The notes under the pieces were generated by a model, which saw nothing but the letters and a program-made list of their open reading frames with translations, searched no databases and was not told the origin of the DNA. From IMG/VR virus record IMGVR_UViG_3300014501_000001, positions 32,001-96,000 of that record: a stretch of DNA of 64,000 nt; one strand, written 5' to 3'. The translations under genes and the position numbers were made by a program. Each line of letters opens with the position of its first letter. The stretch's first letter is position 1. Shown in pieces: positions 25,074 through 57,075 of the stretch. Origin of the DNA: a virus.

Positions 25074-28000
25074 ATGGCGGACATTCTCGAAGCAACGATC
25101 GCCCCGGCTGACCAGCTCAGCCCCACGGGCGCAGAGGTCGCCGGCAACGTCGCGCAGTTCTCCCGCACGGGGGAAATGCTGAAGGCCCGGCTCCCGAACC
25201 TCGTCAAGGGAGCAGGCTACGCCGGGACCGGCAACGCCCCCCTCACCGACGAGATCCAGATCATGACCAAGGCATCCCAGGCCGCTATCGACCTGCGGCA
25301 GGCAACCTGGGACGGCATCACCGACAAGCCGGCCGTGGTCAAGGGCATGAACCAGGGGTTCCTGAACCAGTTCGGGTACCTGAAGACGGCCCTGACGGCC
25401 CCGTCGCTGATGGACACCCTCGCGGGTGTCTTCGGGCAGATGCCCGGCGGCAGCGAGGCGTTCAAGAATTTCACGGCCGGCAATCTCGGGGTGGGGTCGG
25501 TGTACGGTTTGGTGCCGTTTGACCTCATGCGACCGAGTCGTCTGATCTACCCGGTATATACCGTTTTCCGCAACAAATTCCCACGGCCCCAGGGCCAGGG
25601 CACGAGCGCGCAGGAACGGGTCATCACCGGCATCTCTGGCAGCCAGACCGGCGGCCAGGGTGTCCTCGACGTGTCCATCACCGAGCTGGTTCAGAGCGGC
25701 GGTACGTTCTCGAACTGGCCCCTCAACCTGCCGCCTTCGGGCTCGCAGACTGAGGTCTTCCTCAATGTGCCTTGCATCCTGTAGGGCCGCCGCGCCGCGA
25801 GGCGCACGCGATAACCGCGAGAATTGCTGGAAAGCCCGTACCACATGCACATGCCACAACGTGGGGCGAAAGCCCGAGCGTGATGGCCTGAAAAATGTGC
25901 ATTAGGGGTAATCAGCAGCCGAGCCCGCCTGGACCGCGACACGCGGCACCGACGGGATGGTTCAGAGACTATGCACGCGGGTTCTGGTAATCTTTAACGA
26001 TGGAGATTAATAACGATGACTGGCAGATAATGGCCGGTCAGGAGCGGGAAGAGTTCATTCGGCGCTACGTGGCTGGCGAGGCCCTGACATCCCTCGCCAG
26101 GGAGTATCACCACGGGCCTGCCACGCTGAGGGCAATCCTCGTCAGCGTGGGGGTGCCAGTCCGGACAAGGCCCGGATACGCCAAGGGCAGGAAGTGGTCA
26201 GAAGCGCAGCGTGAAGCTCACAGGCGCACAACTAGCACCCCTGAGCACAGGCAGAAGATGCGCGCGATCATGCTGAAACGCCTCCCGGTCATGCGCGGAG
26301 CGGCGACGAACTCTCCGATCGAGCGCCGGATGCAAGATGCGCTCATGGCGGTCGGCATCGGCTTCACAACGCAGTCTGTCCTGCTGGACCGCTACCTGGT
26401 GGACATCGAGATCCACCAGGCACCCATCGTGATTGAGGCTGACGGCGCGCAGCACACACTGCGCATCCAGAAGGCCAAGGACGCCGAGCGCGACACGGCT
26501 CTCACTGCCGCCGGGTACCGGGTTTTCCGGTTCACGGGCAGCGAGATCAATGCCGACGCCGTGCTGTGTGTCCGGCGTGTTATCGACGCTTGCTTCCTGG
26601 TTCCCGACCAGGAGCCCATCTATGAAATCCGCACGGCTTTCACTGGCGAACTCCACCCGCTCTGGAAGGGCGGCAAGCGGGAGTTCACCTGCGAGATCTG
26701 CGGGGTCGTGTTCATGGCTCAGCCTGCGCACCGCAAGGGGCCGCACATCTACTGCAGCATGCAGTGCAATGGTGCAGCCAAGCGCGGCAAGACGGCGAGT
26801 GCTGAGACCCGTGCCAAGATCAGCGCCGCGAATAGGGGCAAGGAGCGCAAGCCCCCGCCACCGTTCACGGCCGAGCATCGCGCCAAGATCAGCGCAGGGC
26901 TTAAGGGCAGGCCAAAGACTGCGGAGCACGCCGCCAAGGTTGGTGCAGCGCAGGCTGGCAGGCCAAAGTCCGCCGAGACTCGGGCAAAGATCAGCGAAAC
27001 GCTCAAGCGTCGAAACGCAAACCAGAACAAGATAGAGTCCGCTCTGCATGGAGACATGCAGAGGCCGGCAGAAATGACCGGCCCCGCCACCCTGTTCTGA
27101 GGGCGGCGAGTAACAACAGGTACCGTTTCTTCGGCATCAGCGAGCAGCTTTCCTGGCTCGCGCAGTTCGCAGGACAGGGTCAACTTAGAGGCCCCCTCGC
27201 AGGGTGACCTGCGAGTTCACTCGGCACCGTAACGGTGAACCCCGCCAAGCCAAGGGGAATACCGTGGAAACCTCGCACTACAGGGTTCCGTAGAGAGCAA
27301 GCGTGCCGCGCCTGTGTCATGGGACCTGCCCCGAGTGCATCAGGGGCAGCGGACCGCAGGCGAAGTTGTGCTCCGGGCTCGCGCGATGGAAAAGCGCGAG
27401 AGGCGTCCAGAAATGAGGCGCCCGGCCGTCCCCAGTGGCGGCAGGTAACAGTTCGTTCGAGGACATTGCCGGCCTGGCCAACCTGATCATGCTTCAGGAG
27501 GCCATGCTCGGAGAGGAATATCAGTTCATAGCGGGCACTTCCGCTCCGCTGGCCGTTCCCGCAGCACCGACCTGCACTGTCCGCACCGCCGGCTCCAATG
27601 AGACGGCGCTCAACACGAACATCACCGCGGTCAAGGTGGCCGCGACCAACTACTTCGGCTCGACCGCCGTCTCGGCGGCCTCGTCCACGTTCGCCGTGGC
27701 GTCCGGCCAGGTCGTGGATGTCACGATCGCCCCGGTCGCGGGCACGATGACCTACTCGATCTACGCCTTCACGTCCGGTTCCAGCTACTACCTGCTGGCA
27801 TCGGGCGTCGGCGGCCAGAAGTACACCCTGCAGGGCTTCTCGTCCCTGCCGACCGCCGTCGTCCCCCCGGCTGCCGACACCGGCACCGGGAAGAACACCC
27901 GGATGGAAGGCGTCATCCCGACGCTCACCGGGGCGTCGGCCGCTGCGGGGGTCTACCCCAGCGGCTGGCAGGGCGGCTACGTCAACCAGTCCGTGGGAAC

Positions 28001-31876: not shown

Positions 31877-32547
31877 TCCACCGGATGTGGCTCGGCCCCC
31901 GCCCCATGCCGGCGCCGTTCCGCGGCTTCGGCAAGAGGTGGCAGGAGCTTAACCCCGGCGCGAAGGTCATCGAGTGGAGCTGGCACAACCTGCCGGAAGA
32001 CCTCGCCAATGACGGCGTGCTGGAGGACATCCGGGGCCGCTGCACCAAAGGCGGCTCGATCGAGATGGCGGTCGCGCTCGCCGACGTGATCGCCTACGAC
32101 CTGGTGCGCAGGTTCGGCGGCACCTACGTGAACTGCGACATCCAGCCGCTGCGCCCCCTGTCCCTCCTCGGCGATGTCATTGCCACCCGGCCATGGGCGT
32201 CCTGGGAGAGCGATGAGGAATGGCGCGGGGTAGTCAACGCCGCGTTCGGCGGCCCGGCCGGCCACCCGTTCTGGGAGTCCGTGGTCACCGAGCTGCTGCC
32301 GCAGCGCTACTGGCGGATGAAGGCGGAGGGCAACGGCATCATCCCCGACGCGACCGGCAACGCGCTGATGGGCGAGGCGATGACAGCCCATCCCGGCGTC
32401 CTGCACGCCTTCCCCCGCGAGACGTTCAACCCGGTGCACTCCACCGAACTGGGGCTGCTGACGCCCTCGTGGATCCCCCCTCCCGGTGCCGTCGCGGTCC
32501 ATTACTGGGATCACAAGCGGACCGGGCGGACCAACTACATCACCTGA
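31870..32547 (+). CDS. GT32/DXD-like glycosyltransferase
   Basis: IHRMWLG, W.ELNPG, FGGTYVNCD (DxD variant), GHPFW. Confidence 0.75.
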   Translation: MLIHRMWLGPRPMPAPFRGFGKRWQELNPGAKVIEWSWHNLPEDLANDGVLEDIRGRCTKGGSIEMAVALADVIAYDLVRRFGGTYVNCDIQPLRPLSLLGDVIATRPWASWESDEEWRGVVNAAFGGPAGHPFWESVVTELLPQRYWRMKAEGNGIIPDATGNALMGEAMTAHPGVLHAFPRETFNPVHSTELGLLTPSWIPPPGAVAVHYWDHKRTGRTNYIT

Positions 32548-32675: not shown

Positions 32676-33419
32676 ATGTCTAGTGTTATTGATCTAACCG
32701 GCCATGTCTACGGACGGCTCACTGTCCTGTTCCGGGCGCCCGATGGGGTCGGCTCAAAGGGGCGACGTCAGATCCAGTGGGTCTGCCAGTGTTCCTGCGG
32801 CAACATCTGCATCATCCAGAGAGGCTGCCTTCGCGACGGCCACACCAGGTCATGCGGTTGCATTTCCCGGGAGAGAAGCAATAGCACCACTCACGGCATG
32901 ACCAAATCCCCGGAACATGTGGCCTGGCGGGCCATGAAGACGCGGTGCTTCAATCCGAATACCGCGAGCTGGCCCGACTACGGCGGCCGGGGCATCACGG
33001 TGTGCCCGCAGTGGCGCAACTCGTTTGAGCAGTTCTATGCAGACATGGGTCCGCATCCGGGGCCGGAATACTCCCTTGACCGCATCGACAACGACGGCGA
33101 TTACGAGCCGGGTAACTGCCGCTGGGCGACCGCGTCGGAGCAGGCCTTCAACAGGACCTACCGCAAGCCTCGCATCTGCCAATGCGCATGCAATCGGGGC
33201 GAAGGGCAATGCGGCAGGAAAAACCGAAGGGGCGAAGAGTCGGTGAACGGCTCTGGACTTGGCGGAATGACAGGCGGTCACGGGGACCAGACCTACCGCG
33301 AGGGACGGGCGCTCCTCGGCCCCGAGGGCATGGCCGGCGACTTCGGCGCCCACTACGGCCAGATCCAGGCGGACGCGGAAATCATCCGGGGACTGCTGAA
33401 CGGGGGAAACGGGACTTGA
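32676..33419 (+). CDS. Free-standing HNH endonuclease, in frame with a downstream small gene (GTG about 33243)
   Basis: DLTG..YGRLTV, C.C.CG, SCGC, YGGRGI.VC, SLDRIDNDGDYEPGNCRWAT. Confidence 0.85.
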   Translation: MSSVIDLTGHVYGRLTVLFRAPDGVGSKGRRQIQWVCQCSCGNICIIQRGCLRDGHTRSCGCISRERSNSTTHGMTKSPEHVAWRAMKTRCFNPNTASWPDYGGRGITVCPQWRNSFEQFYADMGPHPGPEYSLDRIDNDGDYEPGNCRWATASEQAFNRTYRKPRICQCACNRGEGQCGRKNRRGEESVNGSGLGGMTGGHGDQTYREGRALLGPEGMAGDFGAHYGQIQADAEIIRGLLNGGNGT

Positions 33420-34358: not shown

Positions 34359-34528
34359 CTTGGCATCCGTTCCGCCGCCGGCTGAGCCGCCAGCTCGCCG
34401 CTACGATCGGCTCCGGCCTCGTGAGCATCGAGGAAGGGCGCCGCATTCTCGGGGACAACCCGTGGGGGTTGCGGCGCTCCCGCTGGCACCGGCTGCGCGC
34501 GTCCCTCTCGTCGCTGATTGCGCCATGA
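34355..34528 (+). CDS. 57-aa protein carrying a portal-like C-terminal peptide
   Basis: GTGA and ATGA coupling at both ends; IGSGLVSIEEGRRILGDNPWGL. Confidence 0.6.
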   Translation: MTWHPFRRRLSRQLAATIGSGLVSIEEGRRILGDNPWGLRRSRWHRLRASLSSLIAP

Positions 34529-34827
34529 GCGAGCCGAAGCCCGGTGTCGGCCGCATCGTCCACTACGTCAGCTACGGCACGCCGGGTGGCGAGTACGGCC
34601 AGGAATGCCGCGCCGCCATCGTCACCGAGACGCTGGAGTTCGAGCCGGGTAGCGCCGAGGAGCATCGCCGGGGTGAGGTCGGCCTGTGCGTGCTCAACCC
34701 GACCGGCCAGTTCTTCAACCGGGGTGTCCCGTTCGGCAAGGGCGATGCTCCGTGTGTGGCTGGCCAGCTCACGGGGGGTTCCTGGCACTGGCCGGCGCAC
34801 GCCGAGCGCGACCCTGACCGGGCCTAG
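34525..34827 (+). CDS. Conserved small phage protein (P.VGRIVHY...AAIVT...WHWP)
   Basis: Recognisable motif. Confidence 0.7.
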   Translation: MSEPKPGVGRIVHYVSYGTPGGEYGQECRAAIVTETLEFEPGSAEEHRRGEVGLCVLNPTGQFFNRGVPFGKGDAPCVAGQLTGGSWHWPAHAERDPDRA

Positions 34828-36033: not shown

Positions 36034-36095
36034 TCCCTCAGCCTGCCACCATCGCGCCGAGAGCGCCCGGATGCTCGCGGGGAGGTGATGTCAAA

Positions 36096-37047
36096 ATGCC
36101 CGCCCCGTATCAGACGCCAACGCCCTATATCAACCCAGCTATCCTGACTTCTGCCGCGACAGGCATTTTACCCGGTCTCATGGAGCACTATCCCGAACCG
36201 GCAGGCGACCCCCGCTGAGCAACTCAGCGAGCAGTACAACCTGTGCCAGCGCGCGACAAACATGGTCGATTCGGCGGCCAACCAGATTCTCCGCGCCACG
36301 GTCACCACGGAGCAGCTGAAAGGCCCCGGCACTACCCGGTTCCAGATCGACAGCATCGGGAACGCGGCCATCATCCTGGCCCGCAGCCCGATCCTCTCCA
36401 TCCTCGGCGGCCAGTGCGCTCCCGCTATCCCGCCGCTCCAGTGGACGACGATCCCGGCCAATATGTATGTGGTCGATTCGCCTCCCTTGTCCGTTTACGG
36501 CACATCGGTTCCCGCCGACGCGGGCGAGTGGGGGCAGTCCGTCACCCTCGGCGGCGGCTACGTCAGCACCTGGAACGGCCGCGGGGGCTACTTCCTCCAG
36601 ACGACCTACGTGAACGGGTGGCCCCACTGCTCCCTCACGACTGCCTCCATCGCCGGGGCAACCACGATCCAGGTAGATGACTGCACTGGCTGGGGACCGC
36701 CGGCGGGAAGCACCCAGGGAGCGGCCGGGGTCATCTACGATCCGGGCGGCGGGGGGCAGCAGGAGACGGCCACCGTCACGCTGGCATCGGCGACGACCGG
36801 GCCGGGGACGCTGACGATCACCCCGGCCCTGACGTGGCCGCACTCGCAGGGGATCATATTCAGCGGGATGGCCTCAACCCTTCAGTGGGCCGCCATCCTG
36901 TTCGGCGTCGCCCAGGCCCTCACCAGGGGCGCCACGGCGACCACCCCGCAGACGATCTCGCCTGCCGGGATCAGCACCGGCAGCGGGGCGGACGCGCTCA
37001 TGAAGGCCGCGAAGCTGATGGTGCGCGACTTCAAGAGGATCTGGTAG
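36096..37047 (+). CDS. Putative head-to-tail adaptor; frame interrupted by 10 nt (36168-36177)
   Basis: GGAGG RBS; MPAPYQTPTPYINPAILTSAATGI joins SWSTIPNRQ... in the +1 frame; synteny. Confidence 0.7.
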
Positions 37048-47600: not shown

Positions 47601-49481
47601 TACCTGTTCATCCCGCCCGCCATCTCGTGGACCGCGCAGGACAACGCCACCGTCTCGACCCTCGCGCCGTTCGCCCCGGATCCGGCGGGCCCGCCGAACG
47701 TGAGCCCCTGGTACATCCCGTTCTCCGGGTTCACCGAGCGCCTGCCCCAGTCCTGGGATGAGCTGCTGCGCGGCAAGGTCGAGGCGACGATCGTGGACGC
47801 CTGGGCCGGCGTCAACTACGTCCCCCAGCCCATCCTGATCGACGAGATCCAGAATGATGATCCCGGCTGGTACTGGCCGTGCACCGACCCTGCGGGGTCG
47901 TCCTCGGCGGCGAACCAGGCGGTCGGCAACACGAACCCGCTGGTCCTGGTGCGCTCCAAGTACGGCGCCGGCGGCGCGACGGAGGCGTTCGGCGGGCAGC
48001 CCGCGAACCCGATCCTCGGCGCCCAGGGAACCCTCCTGCTGACCACCTCCGGGTCGTTCCGCGCCTCGTCGCAGTCCGGCATGTGGGGGCAGGTCGTCAC
48101 CGCCGGCACCGCCTTCAACCAGGGCTACGGCCTGCAGTGCCTTGACCTCGGCTTCCCGTCCATCGCCAGCGGGATCACGGCCGAGGGCTGGTTCGAGATC
48201 GACGGCATCGCCACGTCGGCGGCGCAGGGCGTCCTGCTGTCCCTCGCCGGCGCCAGCACCGAGCAGTTCATCAGCGTCACCACCGGCCCCGGCGCCGGGC
48301 CGGCCGGCCTTAACTTCAACTGGATCACCGCGAACGACGTGCCCGGCGGGGTCAGCGTCGGGTTCCCCGGCGACGGCGTCCTGTTCCATCTCGCCGTCAC
48401 GCTCACCCAGGGCGCCTACAACGTGTTCTACAACGGGGTCAGCACCGTCTCCGGGTCGTTCCCCTCGCAGATCCCGGCGGACTTCACGTACCTGATGTGC
48501 TCCATGCTCGGGGTCGCGTCTGCAGGGAATCCGGCCCCGAACTTCAATGGCGGCGCCTATTCCGGGTTCACCGGCCACGTCGCGGTCTGGGACCGGATCC
48601 TGTCCCAGCAGCGGATCGCCACCCACTACCTCGCCGGCTCGACGGCGATGGCCGGGGAAGCCTCCTCCGACCGGATCGAGCGGCTGCTCCAGGCCGGGCA
48701 GGCGACCGGCCGGCGGGTGATCCTCCAGGAGACCGGCACCTCCGTGGATGCGGTCGTGTCCTGCCAGGACATCTCCGGGAGCCCGGCCTCGCAGGACGTC
48801 GCCAACATCACCACCAGCCTCGTGCCGGCCGTGTTCTACATCACGCCCGCCGGGGAGATGTACCACCTGGCCAAGCAGTTCGCCTGGAACCAGCCCGTCG
48901 TCTGGACGCTCGGCCAGGACGTCGCCAGCGGCCAGATCCCGTTCAAGGGGGACCTGGTTTTCGACTGGGACCCGACCCGGATCGTCAACCAGATCCAGCT
49001 CACCCAGCTAGACGACCAGTCGATCACCGTCCCCTCGGTGACTGCGGAGGAAACCGCGTCGCAGCTCGAGTACGGGACGATCAGCTACCAGCAGACCGGG
49101 TATTTGCAGGGCGATTCCTCGTCGCCGCTGACCGCCGGGCCGGGGCTGATGGACCTCGCGGACTACCTGGCTACCACGTTCGCGGCGCCGAGGCTGAGGC
49201 TCTCTGCGATCACCGTGGAAGCCTCCTCCAACCCGACGCTGTGGCCGTTCGTCCTCGGCGTCAGCCCCGGGGACATGATCACCGTGACGCGGGTCGCGCA
49301 GGAGAACGTGCTGGTCACGGTCACGGGGCGGGTGACGCAGACGGAGCGCACCTTCGAGTCGGGGATGTCGCCGGTCGCGTCAGTCAGCCTGCTCATCGAC
49401 CCCGCGCCTGAGGGCAACTGCCTTGCCTTGGACGATCCGGTCAGGGGACTACTAAATGGACAAAACGTCTTGGGCTGGTAG
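44664..49481 (+). CDS. Large tail tip protein: two Gly-rich domains, LamG-like domain, hub-like C-terminus
   Basis: Duplicated Gly-rich modules; GRQYEL...GTLLLDNPDG; ITAEGWF...HLAVT...GHVAVWDRILS. Confidence 0.8.
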   Translation: MATFTWTQAVAGTYTWVCPAGVTAAQVECVAGGAGGAGGSSGSAAGSGGGGGEYAAEPAQSVTAGSSYTVVVGAAGTAGATAGGTGGAGGNSTFAATSVVAHGGTGGTSSGSGGGAGGTGSSNTTHNNGGAGGGHGGKSDGGGGGGGSGGSGSAGNAGAASSSSTGGAGGTAVTGGGPGGAGGTSTAAGNAPASGPGGAGGGGGDASVAGGAGKPGRVIITVTILSPALFTSADTAWAFVVPAGITAIHAECWGGGAGGFQAGTSGGAGGGGGAYAGEPSLAVTAAGSYPFTIGAGGAANASGTSSVFAGDAVTVTANHGVVSAADGTGGAGGAAGSNTAAFAGGAGGTNGTTGGGGGGGSGGTAAGGNTGSNGSTVTGGSGATAVTGGGPGGGGGSAGGPGSAPASGPGGGGGGAGYTSTTNGAGFAGQVQLTWGTGVTGAVSALALAAPAGSVSAGATVAGAVAGLTFAAPAGSVVTGISVAGQVAGLTFAAPAGSVSAGATVAGATAALTLAAPGGSVTAGASAALTVSVAGSASFAFPLTAAGIPDPGTLSLPVPVSNFTGDWLFAIISWRQAPGTPPVTWSVGDDALGLTGTPGHNWWDPLGNPAGTSSGSGVTRTAVWVAPAARACSTVYIAPTDFYLSVACTVLDVAGMQPWYTLTGIDTAYVNSALSLPGLTLGAPSGPAFLITACSSDVITDTISRSGAGWTSLPTLTATNGTDLTSDLKQTPAWQVTSSSSSAGYSSSSGQDLSGVLGGVLVSAQKPGQPSRYWPVTIAEMAPGSGIGSPPDTLAWVATTARYLKMSVTQGRQYELATLSTGEGTLLLDNPDGALLPPGTGNFAGITAGTPYRLRTAWPGGAWQVSFHGNGSTAAPRISTGNIYPAAAGTVYSASAWLSCSPYYASGCHLTMNFRQSGGTFISAVSSSSVTGLAAALATVSGTAPANTGLIELVIAATGTPASTVTFYAAAVFSSGSPGYLFIPPAISWTAQDNATVSTLAPFAPDPAGPPNVSPWYIPFSGFTERLPQSWDELLRGKVEATIVDAWAGVNYVPQPILIDEIQNDDPGWYWPCTDPAGSSSAANQAVGNTNPLVLVRSKYGAGGATEAFGGQPANPILGAQGTLLLTTSGSFRASSQSGMWGQVVTAGTAFNQGYGLQCLDLGFPSIASGITAEGWFEIDGIATSAAQGVLLSLAGASTEQFISVTTGPGAGPAGLNFNWITANDVPGGVSVGFPGDGVLFHLAVTLTQGAYNVFYNGVSTVSGSFPSQIPADFTYLMCSMLGVASAGNPAPNFNGGAYSGFTGHVAVWDRILSQQRIATHYLAGSTAMAGEASSDRIERLLQAGQATGRRVILQETGTSVDAVVSCQDISGSPASQDVANITTSLVPAVFYITPAGEMYHLAKQFAWNQPVVWTLGQDVASGQIPFKGDLVFDWDPTRIVNQIQLTQLDDQSITVPSVTAEETASQLEYGTISYQQTGYLQGDSSSPLTAGPGLMDLADYLATTFAAPRLRLSAITVEASSNPTLWPFVLGVSPGDMITVTRVAQENVLVTVTGRVTQTERTFESGMSPVASVSLLIDPAPEGNCLALDDPVRGLLNGQNVLGW

Positions 49482-50126
49482 CCGCCGCCTGGCCGCGTTC
49501 TTTGCGCGGCGTGCCGCACTTCTTTGCGCAAGGCGCGCGCTGTCGCTAATCCGCGAGCATTCCCGGCATCGGCGCGTGCCCTTCTTGTCCACGTAGGTGT
49601 TCGCCGGGGTGAACTCATGCCCGTGGCAGCAGTGCGTTCTCCCTTCGACTCGCCGTGGCGGGATGCTCAGGTCTTTCACGCCGTGGCAGGTCCGGCATTG
49701 CCGACTGCCAGGCTGCGCCGGCGGAGTGTAGGTGTTCTCGGGCGTGAACTCATGGCCATGCTTGCAGTGGGTCTTGTTGGCCATGTGGTGGGTACCGTGG
49801 CGTACCCGGTCAAGCACGTTCTCGCGCCGGGTGTCGTAGGAGAGGTTGCTGAGCGCGCTATTGCCCGGATCACCGTCGCCGTGCAGGACTTCCTTACCGG
49901 GTGACAGCGGACCCAGGAACGCTCGTGTCACAAGGTTGTGCACGCTCCGGCGCTCAGACTGGCCCGCTCCCCTGCTGAGAGAGACGTACGGGTAGCCCTG
50001 CGGATCTATCGACGGCTTCTTGAGCCGTTCGCGCTTGACTCCCCATACCCGGCCGAAGTTGCTGACGTCATAACTTCCCTCGTAGCCGGGGACTGGCTTC
50101 CAGATTTCGGGCGTACCATCGCTCAT
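49452..50126 (-). CDS. NUMOD4-HNH homing endonuclease inserted antisense in the tail operon
   Basis: EIWKPVPGYEG.YDVSNFGRV; VHNLV..AFLG; H.DG...N..LSNL; two THC..GHEFTPENTY repeats. Confidence 0.9.
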   Translation of the reverse strand: MSDGTPEIWKPVPGYEGSYDVSNFGRVWGVKRERLKKPSIDPQGYPYVSLSRGAGQSERRSVHNLVTRAFLGPLSPGKEVLHGDGDPGNSALSNLSYDTRRENVLDRVRHGTHHMANKTHCKHGHEFTPENTYTPPAQPGSRQCRTCHGVKDLSIPPRRVEGRTHCCHGHEFTPANTYVDKKGTRRCRECSRISDSARLAQRSAARRAKNAARRRLPAQDVLSI

Positions 50127-54854: not shown

Positions 54855-54905
54855 TGCTCTCGCTAATGGTGAAAGAGCACGCTTTAAAGAGCTTAGTGAT
54901 AGCTT
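54855..54905. other. Candidate attP
   Basis: AT-rich imperfect inverted repeat (TCGCTAA...TTAGTGA; AAAG...CTTT) directly upstream of the serine integrase. Confidence 0.35.
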
Positions 54906-54911
54906 AGCCGC

Positions 54912-56318
54912 ATGGTCGAACGATGCGCGCTCTATGCCCGCCTCAGCTACGCCCCGGACGGCTCCGTCGAGGCCGTCACCCGGCAGGAGGAGTTCGCCCG
55001 GGGACTGGCCGCCCGGCTGGGGTGGGGAGTCGGCGCGGTTTTCGTGGACAACAGCCTCTCAGCCTGGAAGCGCGGTGTCATCCGGCCCGGCTGGGACCGG
55101 ATGCTGGCCGGCCTCCGATCCGGGGCATGCGACGGCCTGGTTTCCTACCACGGCGACCGGCTCATCCGCAGCGACCGGGGCCTGATCGACCTGTTCGACA
55201 TCGCCGAGGAACGCGGCCTGCCGATGGCATCGGTGTCCGGCACCCGCGACCTGTCCAGCCCCGATGACAGGTACATCCTGCGCATCGAGGTCGCCGGGTA
55301 CATCAGGGAATCCGACAGCATCTCCCGCCGCGTGAAGGCCGCCCTGGAGCGCAACGCCCGGCTCGGGAAGGCCCGGCCGGGCAGGTACCGGGCCTACGGC
55401 TACGACCGGGCCGGCATGGAGATCATCCCCGGCGAGGCGGCGGTCGTGCGGGAGATGGCCGCCCGGATGCTCGCCGGCGCCGCGCTCAACTCCGTGCCCC
55501 GCTGGCTCAACGCGGAGAGCGTGCCGACCGTGACCGGAGCCCCGTGGATCCGCGCCACCGTCCGCTCCGTGCTGACCTCCCCGCGCATCGCCGGGCTGCG
55601 GGCACTGCGGGGCGACATCATCGGCCCCGGGCAGTGGCCGGGGATCCTGGACCGGGAAACCTGGGAGGACGTCCAGCAGGTCGTGAAGTCCTGGCACTAC
55701 GGCAAGGGAAGGGGGTCCAGGGTGCCCCGCGCTCACCTGCTCACCGGCATCGCCGCGTGCGGCTCCTGCGGGCGCGGCCTGCGGTCCCTGCGCCGCAGCG
55801 GCCACCCGGACAGGCACATCTACTGGTGCGACAACCCCGCGTGCCCCGGCCCGAAGGTCGCGCGCTCGGAGGAGCACCTGGACGAGTACGTGACCACCGC
55901 GACGATCACCGTGCTGAACTCGCCGGAAGCCCGCGCCTCCCGGCAGCAGCGGCAGGGCAGCCCCGTGCTCGCCGCGGAGATCGCGGCCCTGGAGACCCGG
56001 ATGAGCGCCGAGCAGGCCGCGATGGACGAGATGCGCGACAGCGGCGACCCCGACTACGACCCGGTACTGGCGATGCGCCGCATCGGGTCGTGGAAACGGC
56101 GCATCGCCTCGCTGCGGGGGCAGATGGAGGCCACCTCCCGCCAGCGGCTCATCGACGCCACGGGAGAACTCACCCGGGGGCAGTGGGACGGGCTGACCCT
56201 GGAGCGGCGGCACGCCATCATCTCGGCGCTGTGGGAGGTGACCGTGCTGCCTGCCGCGAGGAAGGGGAGGCAGCCATTCGACCCGGAGTGCGTGCGGCTG
56301 GTGCTGCGGGAGGACTGA
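54912..56318 (+). CDS. int: Large serine recombinase (integrase)
   Basis: YARLS catalytic motif, DRLIR, recombinase domain, Zn ribbon CGSCG...Y.C, coiled coil. Confidence 0.92.
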   Translation: MVERCALYARLSYAPDGSVEAVTRQEEFARGLAARLGWGVGAVFVDNSLSAWKRGVIRPGWDRMLAGLRSGACDGLVSYHGDRLIRSDRGLIDLFDIAEERGLPMASVSGTRDLSSPDDRYILRIEVAGYIRESDSISRRVKAALERNARLGKARPGRYRAYGYDRAGMEIIPGEAAVVREMAARMLAGAALNSVPRWLNAESVPTVTGAPWIRATVRSVLTSPRIAGLRALRGDIIGPGQWPGILDRETWEDVQQVVKSWHYGKGRGSRVPRAHLLTGIAACGSCGRGLRSLRRSGHPDRHIYWCDNPACPGPKVARSEEHLDEYVTTATITVLNSPEARASRQQRQGSPVLAAEIAALETRMSAEQAAMDEMRDSGDPDYDPVLAMRRIGSWKRRIASLRGQMEATSRQRLIDATGELTRGQWDGLTLERRHAIISALWEVTVLPAARKGRQPFDPECVRLVLRED

Positions 56319-56415: not shown

Positions 56416-57075
56416 ATGAGCAATTCCCTGACGGGACATGGTTTCGGGCAGCAACCGGGCACTCATGCACCCAACTACGACCGGAAGTTCCCGGCCGAGC
56501 CGCTGAGCCCGGCCGAGGTCGGTGCCATCATCGGCGCATGCTCCCGGAAATCACCGACCGGGATCCGCAATCGCGCGCTGCTGACCCTGCTCTACCGCTC
56601 CGGGCTCCGCGTGTCCGAGATCCTTGCGCTGCGTCCGGCCGACGTGGACATGGCCCGTCGCAGCATCCGGCTGCTGGACACAAAGAGCGGTCACGCGCAG
56701 ACGCGCCACTTCCATGCCACGGCCGAGGACGCGCTGGCGCGCTGGATCGATACCCGCAAGGGACTCGGGATCAGGAGCGGCAAGTTGTTCTGCACGCTCA
56801 CCGGAACTCCCATGTCCGATGACTACGTGCGCGGCCTGCTTCGGCGACTCGCCGTGAGGGCGTCGATCGACAAGCGCGTGCACCCGCATGGCCTGCGCCA
56901 CACCTTCGCCGTGGAACTGGAGCAGGACGGCACTCCGGTCACCGTGATCAGCAAGCTACTCGGGCACTCCAGCGTGGCCGTCACGGCTCGCTACCTGGAT
57001 CACCTGACCAACGCACAGGCTGGATCGGCTTTGCAGTCGGCCCAGCTTCCATCCTTGGAGGATTCCGATGACTGA
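56416..57075 (+). CDS. Tyrosine recombinase, catalytic domain only
   Basis: GLRVSE, K, HPHGLRH, LLGH, T.RY; TATAGT -10 box, leaderless. Confidence 0.9.
   Translation: MSNSLTGHGFGQQPGTHAPNYDRKFPAEPLSPAEVGAIIGACSRKSPTGIRNRALLTLLYRSGLRVSEILALRPADVDMARRSIRLLDTKSGHAQTRHFHATAEDALARWIDTRKGLGIRSGKLFCTLTGTPMSDDYVRGLLRRLAVRASIDKRVHPHGLRHTFAVELEQDGTPVTVISKLLGHSSVAVTARYLDHLTNAQAGSALQSAQLPSLEDSDD

Follow-up and report, generated by a model that had tools for sequence, protein, structure and literature searches.

A ten-nucleotide TTA-led coding gap in a putative head-to-tail adaptor gene of a high-GC phage, and a family of related gaps that points to translational bypass

We examined a 64,000-nucleotide (nt) stretch of viral DNA, referred to here as the window, which covers positions 32,001–96,000 of IMG/VR record IMGVR_UViG_3300014501_000001 and contains a putative head-to-tail adaptor gene whose reading frame is interrupted by 10 nt. 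The whole record is 113,096 bp long, with an overall guanine-plus-cytosine (GC) content of 68%, and its ends overlap by 123 bp, suggesting a complete circular (or terminally redundant) assembly. A Shine-Dalgarno-like sequence, GGGAGGTG (36080..36087, + strand), was read from the sequence ahead of the adaptor gene and is conserved in the related loci L001, L002, and L012. The gene starts with an ATG at 36096. Its first coding part, codons 1–24 (MPAPYQTPTPYINPAILTSAATGI; 36096..36167, +), matches residues 1–24 of uninterrupted homologues and ends in the take-off codon ATT (36165–36167). Directly after ATT, and in frame with it, is TTA (36168–36170), the first triplet of the 10-nt gap TTACCCGGTC (36168..36177, +), which is missing from uninterrupted homologues; the last triplet of the gap, GTC (36175–36177), is the proposed landing triplet. 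The second coding part, whose protein sequence is conserved, lies in the +1 frame and runs from the resume codon TCA to a TAG stop at 37045–37047 (36178..37047, +). If TTA is read as leucine, frame 0 continues to a TGA stop (36216..36218, +), which closes a 40-amino-acid (aa) dead-end peptide. The +1 frame is open from 36148 to 37047, with its first ATG, GTG, or TTG only at 36262; the 28 codons of 36178–36261 are conserved as protein yet contain no start codon in their own frame.

A search of 5.8 billion proteins with the long frame yielded 610 relatives, most of them uninterrupted proteins of 305–320 aa with the pattern ...TPY(I/V)(T/N)PxxLxSA(P/A)TGISWSTIP.... Across the junction, the uninterrupted homologues P0007, P0011, P0009, P0014, P0018-20, and P0081 read ...SAATGISWSTIP.... 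P0007 (77% identical) and P0011 matched the frame-0 peptide residue for residue as far as TGI and the +1 frame from SWSTIP onward. Because the uninterrupted homologues run straight through the junction, the window carries exactly 10 extra bases. When the whole genome was searched by tblastn with P0007, residues 1–24 ended at 36167 and residues 24–313 started at 36175 in the next frame; no second copy of the adaptor was found, the gene being single-copy. Two relatives with seemingly different N-termini, P0004 and P0010, represent an out-of-frame reading of the same N-terminal DNA. The original prediction, made from the letters of the window, had placed the gap at 36168–36177 and expected homologues to be contiguous through TGI-SWSTIP. 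The alignment and the tblastn search bear out the position and the exact length of 10 nt, and the junction is indeed contiguous in the uninterrupted homologues.

Extra bases of this type might result from an assembly error, or DNA heterogeneity, RNA editing, or splicing might eliminate them ahead of translation. The same 10 bases are present in two further assemblies, L001 and L097, and in lake-water metagenome contigs (three runs from three studies); these contigs span 36045–36360, 36045–36321, and 36093–36196 and show no indel. The presence of identical bases in independent assemblies rules out an assembly artefact. We know of no splicing system that removes 4–15 nt, the size range of the gaps in the adaptor family described below, and these diverse gaps share only the TTA and a landing rule, both of which are features that ribosomes read. 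Error or removal prior to translation is thus hardly credible as an explanation. The alignments and assemblies indicate that the 10 bases at 36168–36177 are a genuine, inherited coding gap within a single adaptor gene (36096–37047). As a separate observation on the lake-water material, the dominant, divergent strain in runs X7 and X9 has 168 different bases in place of 177 bases of the window (36088–36264), with flanks that can be aligned. The replaced segment comprises coding part 1 and the gap, and the window-like form is uncovered across part of the site.

The identity of the encoded protein was examined by profile and structural searches. Pfam and PHROG gave no hit for P0002 or P0007, the PF05135 (Phage_connect_1) profile was not matched, and scans of the immediate neighbours of the adaptor gene against the same two collections assigned no family. 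In a language-model cluster of look-alikes, 24% of the members carry PF05135. An AlphaFold2 model built from a 14-sequence alignment (mean predicted local distance difference test score, pLDDT, 81.5) was aligned by VIA-align to approximately 48,000 solved chains. The matches that span residues 5–313 are head-to-tail adaptor or neck proteins with moderate Z-scores, namely those of a gene transfer agent (6tba_2A, Z 9.0), the phage 812 neck (8q01_b, Z 8.6), Mycofy1 (9lw9_D, Z 8.3), Mu (5ydn, Z 8.1), and HK97 gp6 (3jvo, Z 6.5), with further full-span matches to DT57C, Milano, JBD30, and YqbG. The remaining structural matches cover inserted beta domains only, and a Foldseek search of the PDB returned nothing at E ≤ 0.001; the adaptor assignment rests on VIA-align. 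In the model, the N- and C-terminal helices pack as they do in solved neck proteins. We accept 'head-to-tail adaptor' (gp6/YqbG-like) as the best annotation of the gene, and the full-span matches agree with the putative head-tail adaptor role given to the gene in the original prediction.

The predicted structure also bears on whether the gene is broken, either as a pseudogene in a decaying element or as a gene that yields a truncated protein from the ATG at 36262. This start is the one chosen by gene callers, whose annotated product in the window and several related contigs (P0003, P0005, P0006, P0008, and others) is a 261-aa protein beginning at 36262; among the relatives, P0005, P0008, P0012, P0013, and P0015-17 have calls of 255–261 aa. 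The predicted N-terminal helices, residues 14–19 and 36–58, are part of the adaptor-like model, and a start at 36262 would cost the first helix and most of the second. There is no Shine-Dalgarno motif ahead of this ATG. Both coding parts are under purifying selection: when the 19 codons ahead of the gap were compared between the window, L002, and L003, 9–10 synonymous vs 1–2 non-synonymous changes were counted, and the signature of constraint extends over codons 1–24 and 36178–36261 in diverged gap-bearing relatives. In addition, the genome looks complete, based on its 113,096 bp and 123-bp terminal overlap, and the gene is present in a single copy. A broken gene is very improbable on these grounds. 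By shortening gapped genes to 261 aa, callers thus mis-annotate essential phage genes.

To place the gap in its family context, we took approximately 115 related loci from viral, metagenome, and genome collections and located the N-terminal and downstream parts frame by frame. Approximately 87 unique family genes were compared, and 84 unique sequences were placed on a tree. Gaps were borne by 19 of the 84, about a fifth of the family. Among the approximately 87 genes, the gaps fell into 14 types of 4–15 nt at two N-terminal sites, no gene having two gaps. At the main site, the take-off codon, gap, and resume codon are ATT, TTACCCGGTC, and TCA in the window, L001, and L097; ACA, TTATCGGGCT, and GGC in L002 and L012; ACC, TTACC, and GGC in L003; ACA, TTAGGGGCCTGAGCT, and GGC in L009, L104, and L111; ACA, TTATGAGAGACC, and GGC in L022; TCT, TAGTCC, and TGG in L049; AGC, TTAGC, and TGG in L057; ACT, TTATGTGAACC, and GGC in L064-66; ACA, TTAGACG, and GGC in L091; GGT, TTACCAACGC, and ATC in L103 and L107; GAT, CAACCGTAGGAC, and TGG in L108, with a one-base variant in L119; and ACC, TTAGGTCC, and GGG in L117. 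The second site lies 11–13 codons upstream of the main site, and here the take-off codon TAT is followed either by the gap TTAA, with resumption at GTA or ATA (L008, L100-102), or by the gap TTAC, with resumption at GTC (L011, L109).

The gap types follow a common set of rules. Twelve of the 14 begin with TTA in the upstream frame, the other two beginning with TAG (L049) or the rare codon CAA (L108, L119), and in every one of the 14 the consensus protein is recovered when the gap is skipped. Four types are in-frame (6, 12, 12, and 15 nt), and each of these contains stops; for the 4-, 7-, and 11-nt gaps, the frame entered by a shift has TAA, TAG, or TGA inside the gap. Because of these stops within the gap, 7 of the 14 types are unreadable by a +1 or −1 frameshift. 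A landing rule was scored with the gap taken to start at the TTA, TAG, or CAA codon. At position 2, the last triplet of the gap and the take-off codon agree in 14 of 14 types; the two are synonymous in 8 of 14, compared to a background of 0.056 (binomial P = 2e-7). The six non-synonymous pairs are ATT-GTC, ACA-GCT (two gap types), ACC-TCC, GGT-CGC, and TAT-TAA, five of which differ at position 1. The ATT-GTC pair of the window fits this pattern, in agreement with the first-position G-U pairing at GUC that had been proposed for the window from its sequence. The natural gap series argues for hopping over shifting. In the 15-nt gap of L104, L009, and L111 there is also an in-frame TGA, together with a second possible take-off inside the gap (GCC, then TGA, with landing on GCT).

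TTA is the rarest codon of the genome, accounting for 6 of 22,798 codons in crude gene calls, and all six of these lie in antisense shadows of + strand genes. There is no other credible in-frame use of TTA in the 113-kb genome, in accord with the original prediction, which had noticed no other in-frame TTA in the large structural genes, and a genome-wide scan for further TTA-led gaps turned up none that was credible. The 113,096-bp genome contains no tRNA genes. In the remainder of the family's adaptor genes, TTA is found at 6 of 25,539 codons. Gap-bearing loci are GC-richer than the others (mean 67.7% vs 65.3%), and no gap was found in any member below 62% GC, a bias that is expected if the trick requires TTA to be rare in the host.

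We consider it likely, from the comparison of sequences, that ribosomes cross the gap by programmed translational bypass at a hungry codon, as has been proposed for the terminase gene of phage phiHau3. Two non-coding blocks of 10 nt, each led by UUA, lie in the phiHau3 gene (Smith et al. 2013, as described in Antonov et al. 2023, PMC10732093), a precedent that the original prediction had named correctly. Single UUA-led non-coding blocks are present in the terminase genes of StrepC.1 and an S. catenulae prophage, a length of 7 nt being stated for the latter, and 3 of 100 terminase genes examined have UUA-led blocks; the authors grade their own bypass model for phiHau3 as supported, not proven (PMC10732093). 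Among the papers searched, we found none of later date that extends UUA bypass of the phiHau3 type. In the adaptor gene, the ribosome would translate codons 1–24 and stall while peptidyl-tRNA-Ile occupies AUU and the A site presents UUA, because UUA, as the rarest codon, with no other credible in-frame use and no phage tRNA, would be decoded very slowly. The peptidyl-tRNA would then unpair, the mRNA would slide by 10 nt, and the tRNA would re-pair with GUC through U-A and C-G pairs at positions 2 and 3 and a G-U pair at position 1. Decoding would restart at UCA to give a full-length adaptor of approximately 313 aa with the junction ...TGI-SWSTIP..., whereas ribosomes that decode UUA would produce the 40-aa dead-end peptide.

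Several points weigh against this bypass. For tRNA-Ile, the proposed landing triplet GUC is no better than near-cognate. Predicted RNA folds around the gaps of the window, L002, and L003 are no more stable than those of shuffled sequences (z −1.1 to +0.9), and by eye there is no Shine-Dalgarno-like (GGAGG-like) motif just 5' of the take-off codon, nor is a Shine-Dalgarno motif conserved near the gaps of the family; a 5' stem-loop and an internal Shine-Dalgarno are both part of the model put forward for phiHau3 (PMC10732093). Scarcity of the host tRNA-Leu(UAA) is assumed. Finally, the +1 frame through the window's gap is open, such that a gap translated by frameshifting would encode YPV (...TGI-YPV-SWSTIP...).

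This last point leads to a hungry-codon +1 frameshift, in which, with UUA waiting in the A site, peptidyl-tRNA-Ile slips by one base from AUU to UUU, adding three residues to the product. Shifts to +1 are classically triggered when the ribosome pauses at a rare codon, as in prfB and in hungry-codon shifting, and the slip from AUU to UUU retains two of three pairs. The other two 10-nt gap types likewise have no stop in the +1 frame. When the approximately 65 gapless homologues were examined, none was found to have an extra residue at the junction, which counts against a product with three added residues. Half of the family's gap types are unreadable by shifting, as described above, and a single mechanism for all of them is more economical. 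Furthermore, in the phiHau3 system, for which a junction peptide was obtained in Escherichia coli from a UAA version, a +1-frame stop within the gap did not cut recoding (PMC10732093). The comparative evidence strongly favours bypass. The bypass put forward in the original prediction is favoured by the family comparison over a simple +1 shift, while the open +1 frame leaves such a shift a conceivable, though quite unlikely, alternative for the window itself. The expected N-terminal tryptic peptide differs with the route taken, ending ...SAATGISWSTIPNR after bypass, ...GIYPVSWSTIPNR after a +1 shift, and ...GILPGLMEHYPEPAGDPR if UUA is decoded.

A further question is what purpose the gap serves, which is compatible with bypass as the mechanism. 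The gap could be a developmental or physiological sensor, such that the adaptor is made only when charged tRNA-Leu(UAA) is scarce and a Streptomyces-like host, through its state, would govern completion of the virion. For phiHau3, a sensor is the model that has been published (PMC10732093), and the only credible in-frame TTA of the genome sits in the gap. The phage also carries a serine integrase gene (54912–56318, +; phrog_95, E 7e-78) and a tyrosine-integrase-like gene (56416–57075, +; phrog_1) and is therefore probably temperate. The original prediction had gone further in proposing that virion completion is gated on Streptomyces bldA and thereby on host development, and this proposal was not supported. 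The sequence occurs in permafrost metagenomes and in lake-water or freshwater metagenomes of several studies, with no RNA run listed among the public runs that contain it, and the prophage relatives sit outside Streptomyces in other actinobacterial genera, being found in Actinoallomurus, a Streptosporangiaceae metagenome-assembled genome, and Arthrobacter; a tblastn search of deposited phage genomes gave no match. The TAG-led (L049) and CAA-led (L108, L119) gap types do the same job as TTA. In addition, gaps are found in only about one-fifth of the family, with at least 12 gains or losses and a co-occurrence with HNH endonuclease genes, a distribution more in keeping with a selfish or neutral trait than with a conserved regulatory circuit. 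A sensor role is on balance rather unlikely. Two TTA triplets near the integrase genes, at 54893 and 54904, were considered as a coding gap and rejected; both belong to the leader of the serine integrase gene, which is non-coding, and follow a terminator-like hairpin.

The distribution of gaps on the tree requires at least 12 gains or losses and 15 changes of gap type. Near-identical proteins can have different gaps, as seen with L102 vs L103 and L109 vs L104. Conversely, the identical 15-nt gap of L104, L009, and L111 is found in two separate clades in which the adjacent codons differ at approximately one-third of positions, indicating that the gap sequence is either constrained or horizontally transferred. 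The window and L001 are 97–100% identical from approximately 36040 to the end of the gap and 58–67% identical just after it, a mosaic boundary at the gap. In a scan of flanking open reading frames (ORFs), HNH families dominated the hits in 15 gap loci and were absent from 16 gapless loci. HNH genes were found in 6 of 15 gapped vs 0 of 16 gapless loci (Fisher P = 0.007, for loci that are not phylogenetically independent). An HNH gene abuts the adaptor gene in L008 and L103, and in L022 a 1.1-kb HNH gene lies directly upstream, approximately 80 nt from the gap; both the HNH gene and the gap are missing from the gapless sister L026.

These observations raise the possibility that recombination linked to homing endonucleases generates the gaps and spreads them, and that they are not a host-development sensor, a proposal to which we give somewhat less than an even chance. 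The precedent is the 50-nt bypass of T4 gene 60, which is part of the mobA homing-endonuclease mobile element, with repeated insertion at one position (doi 10.1101/2022.08.31.505936). Small inserts would be introduced by homing-endonuclease traffic, or by repair of the cuts, where the codons of essential virion genes are most conserved. An insert would survive only if ribosomes could hop it, which calls for a rare UUA or a stop in the A site and for a match between landing triplet and take-off codon at positions 2 and 3, and the survivors would then spread by co-conversion. The gaps would persist since they alter the DNA of a conserved target and leave the protein unaltered, as in the T4 gene 60/mobA cassette. 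Such seeding and co-conversion would account for the variety of gap types (14), for the occurrence of one identical gap in two clades, and for the sharp mosaic boundary seen at the gap of the window. By extension, and equally tentatively, TTA-led micro-gaps may be a general, mobile means for high-GC phages to alter endonuclease target DNA with the protein unaltered.

Beyond the lack of phylogenetic independence among the loci, three results count against an endonuclease-linked origin. The neighbours of the window's adaptor gene have no endonuclease match, the nearest HNH gene being 3.4 kb upstream; L049 has a gap and no endonuclease within 3 kb; and the spacer between the conserved upstream SAP-domain gene and the adaptor gene does not differ in length between gapped and gapless loci (median 638 vs 516 nt). 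An endonuclease-linked origin and a developmental gate are not mutually exclusive. The fast turnover of the gaps, taken with their co-occurrence with HNH genes, speaks for a selfish or recombinational origin no less strongly than for regulation.

The window contains two HNH endonuclease genes. One is a free-standing gene at 32700–33170 (+; phrog_374, E 9e-59), located between a 225-aa gene and a Zn-ribbon gene; no gene is present at this position in L002, and a link between this HNH gene and the gap is only conjectured. Weak homologues of it are found in L054 and in L091, where the homologue lies 0.9 kb upstream of the gapped adaptor gene. The second HNH gene (49452–50126, −; phrog_1492, E 5e-70) follows a 1605-aa glycine-rich tail gene and shares its PHROG family with HNH genes near the gapped adaptor genes of L002 and L057. 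An ORF with DUF559 and NUMOD3 endonuclease domains was also noted at 26000–27100 (+). A small protein of phrog_2293 was seen only in the window (34360–34827, +) and in L064-66; its gene is directly upstream of the gapped adaptor gene in L064-66 (L064:2467-2790) and approximately 1.3 kb upstream of the adaptor gene in the window. In the comparison of L001:2480-2710 with window 36040–36260, the stretch of L001 just past the gap contains many A/T-ending codons, which is unusual for these genomes. Also in L001, a transposase gene (L001:4167-5366, −; phrog_506, E 2e-62) lies just 3' of the gene after the adaptor, a position at which the window has nothing.

Short bypass triggered by UUA has been published only for three Streptomyces phage terminase genes, and the adaptor gene would add another essential gene in another phage group. 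The family constitutes a natural mutational series that suggests simple rules of bypass, which can be tested with reporters; if the gaps are indeed mobile micro-gaps, then natural variants already spell out the rules of short-range bypass. The co-occurrence with HNH genes would supply an evolutionary reason for the gaps, parallel to that of T4 gene 60 and mobA and in competition with the host-development model.

The candidate bypass can be compared with four known systems. In prfB, a one-base shift assisted by an upstream Shine-Dalgarno leaves everything translated. The adaptor gene would resemble prfB in the pause at a poorly decoded A-site codon and in a frame change of +1 modulo 3; it differs in that its homologues require 10 bases to be skipped and in having no such upstream Shine-Dalgarno. 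Hungry-codon bypass and short tRNA hops have reportedly been described in E. coli by Gallant and Lindsley and by Weiss, Atkins, and Gesteland. Like the bypass proposed for the adaptor gap, these involve starvation for the A-site tRNA and a peptidyl-tRNA that slides a few to tens of bases onto a matching codon with no dedicated RNA structures, but they are laboratory constructs of low efficiency, whereas the adaptor gap is natural, inherited, and located in an essential gene.

T4 gene 60 shares with the bypass proposed for the adaptor gene a take-off and a landing on a matching codon, with a stop or a rare hungry codon in the A site at take-off, as well as repeated insertion at one conserved position of one gene and, putatively for the adaptor family, a link to homing endonucleases. 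The gap is 10 nt in the window compared to 50 nt in T4, there is no significant take-off hairpin, and the landing triplet is near-cognate rather than identical. The window's gap also has no adjoining endonuclease gene, such adjacency being seen in the relatives L008, L022, and L103. The closest parallel to the proposed mechanism is found in the phiHau3-type terminase genes. In both cases, the interrupted gene is essential for virion assembly in a high-GC actinophage, and a short non-coding block led by an in-frame UUA comes directly after the take-off codon; the length of 10 nt, the strict conservation of the junction in uninterrupted homologues, and the avoidance of UUA elsewhere are likewise shared. 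The differences are that we found no 5' stem-loop or internal Shine-Dalgarno signal in the adaptor gene, and that the adaptor family has a co-occurrence with HNH genes, of which PMC10732093 makes no mention. The gap is here in a head-to-tail adaptor gene, there in a terminase gene, and belongs to another group of phages, with genomes of approximately 113 kb from permafrost and lake water. The adaptor family is also far more varied, its 14 types of 4–15 nt including in-frame gaps with stops and gaps led by a stop or by CAA.

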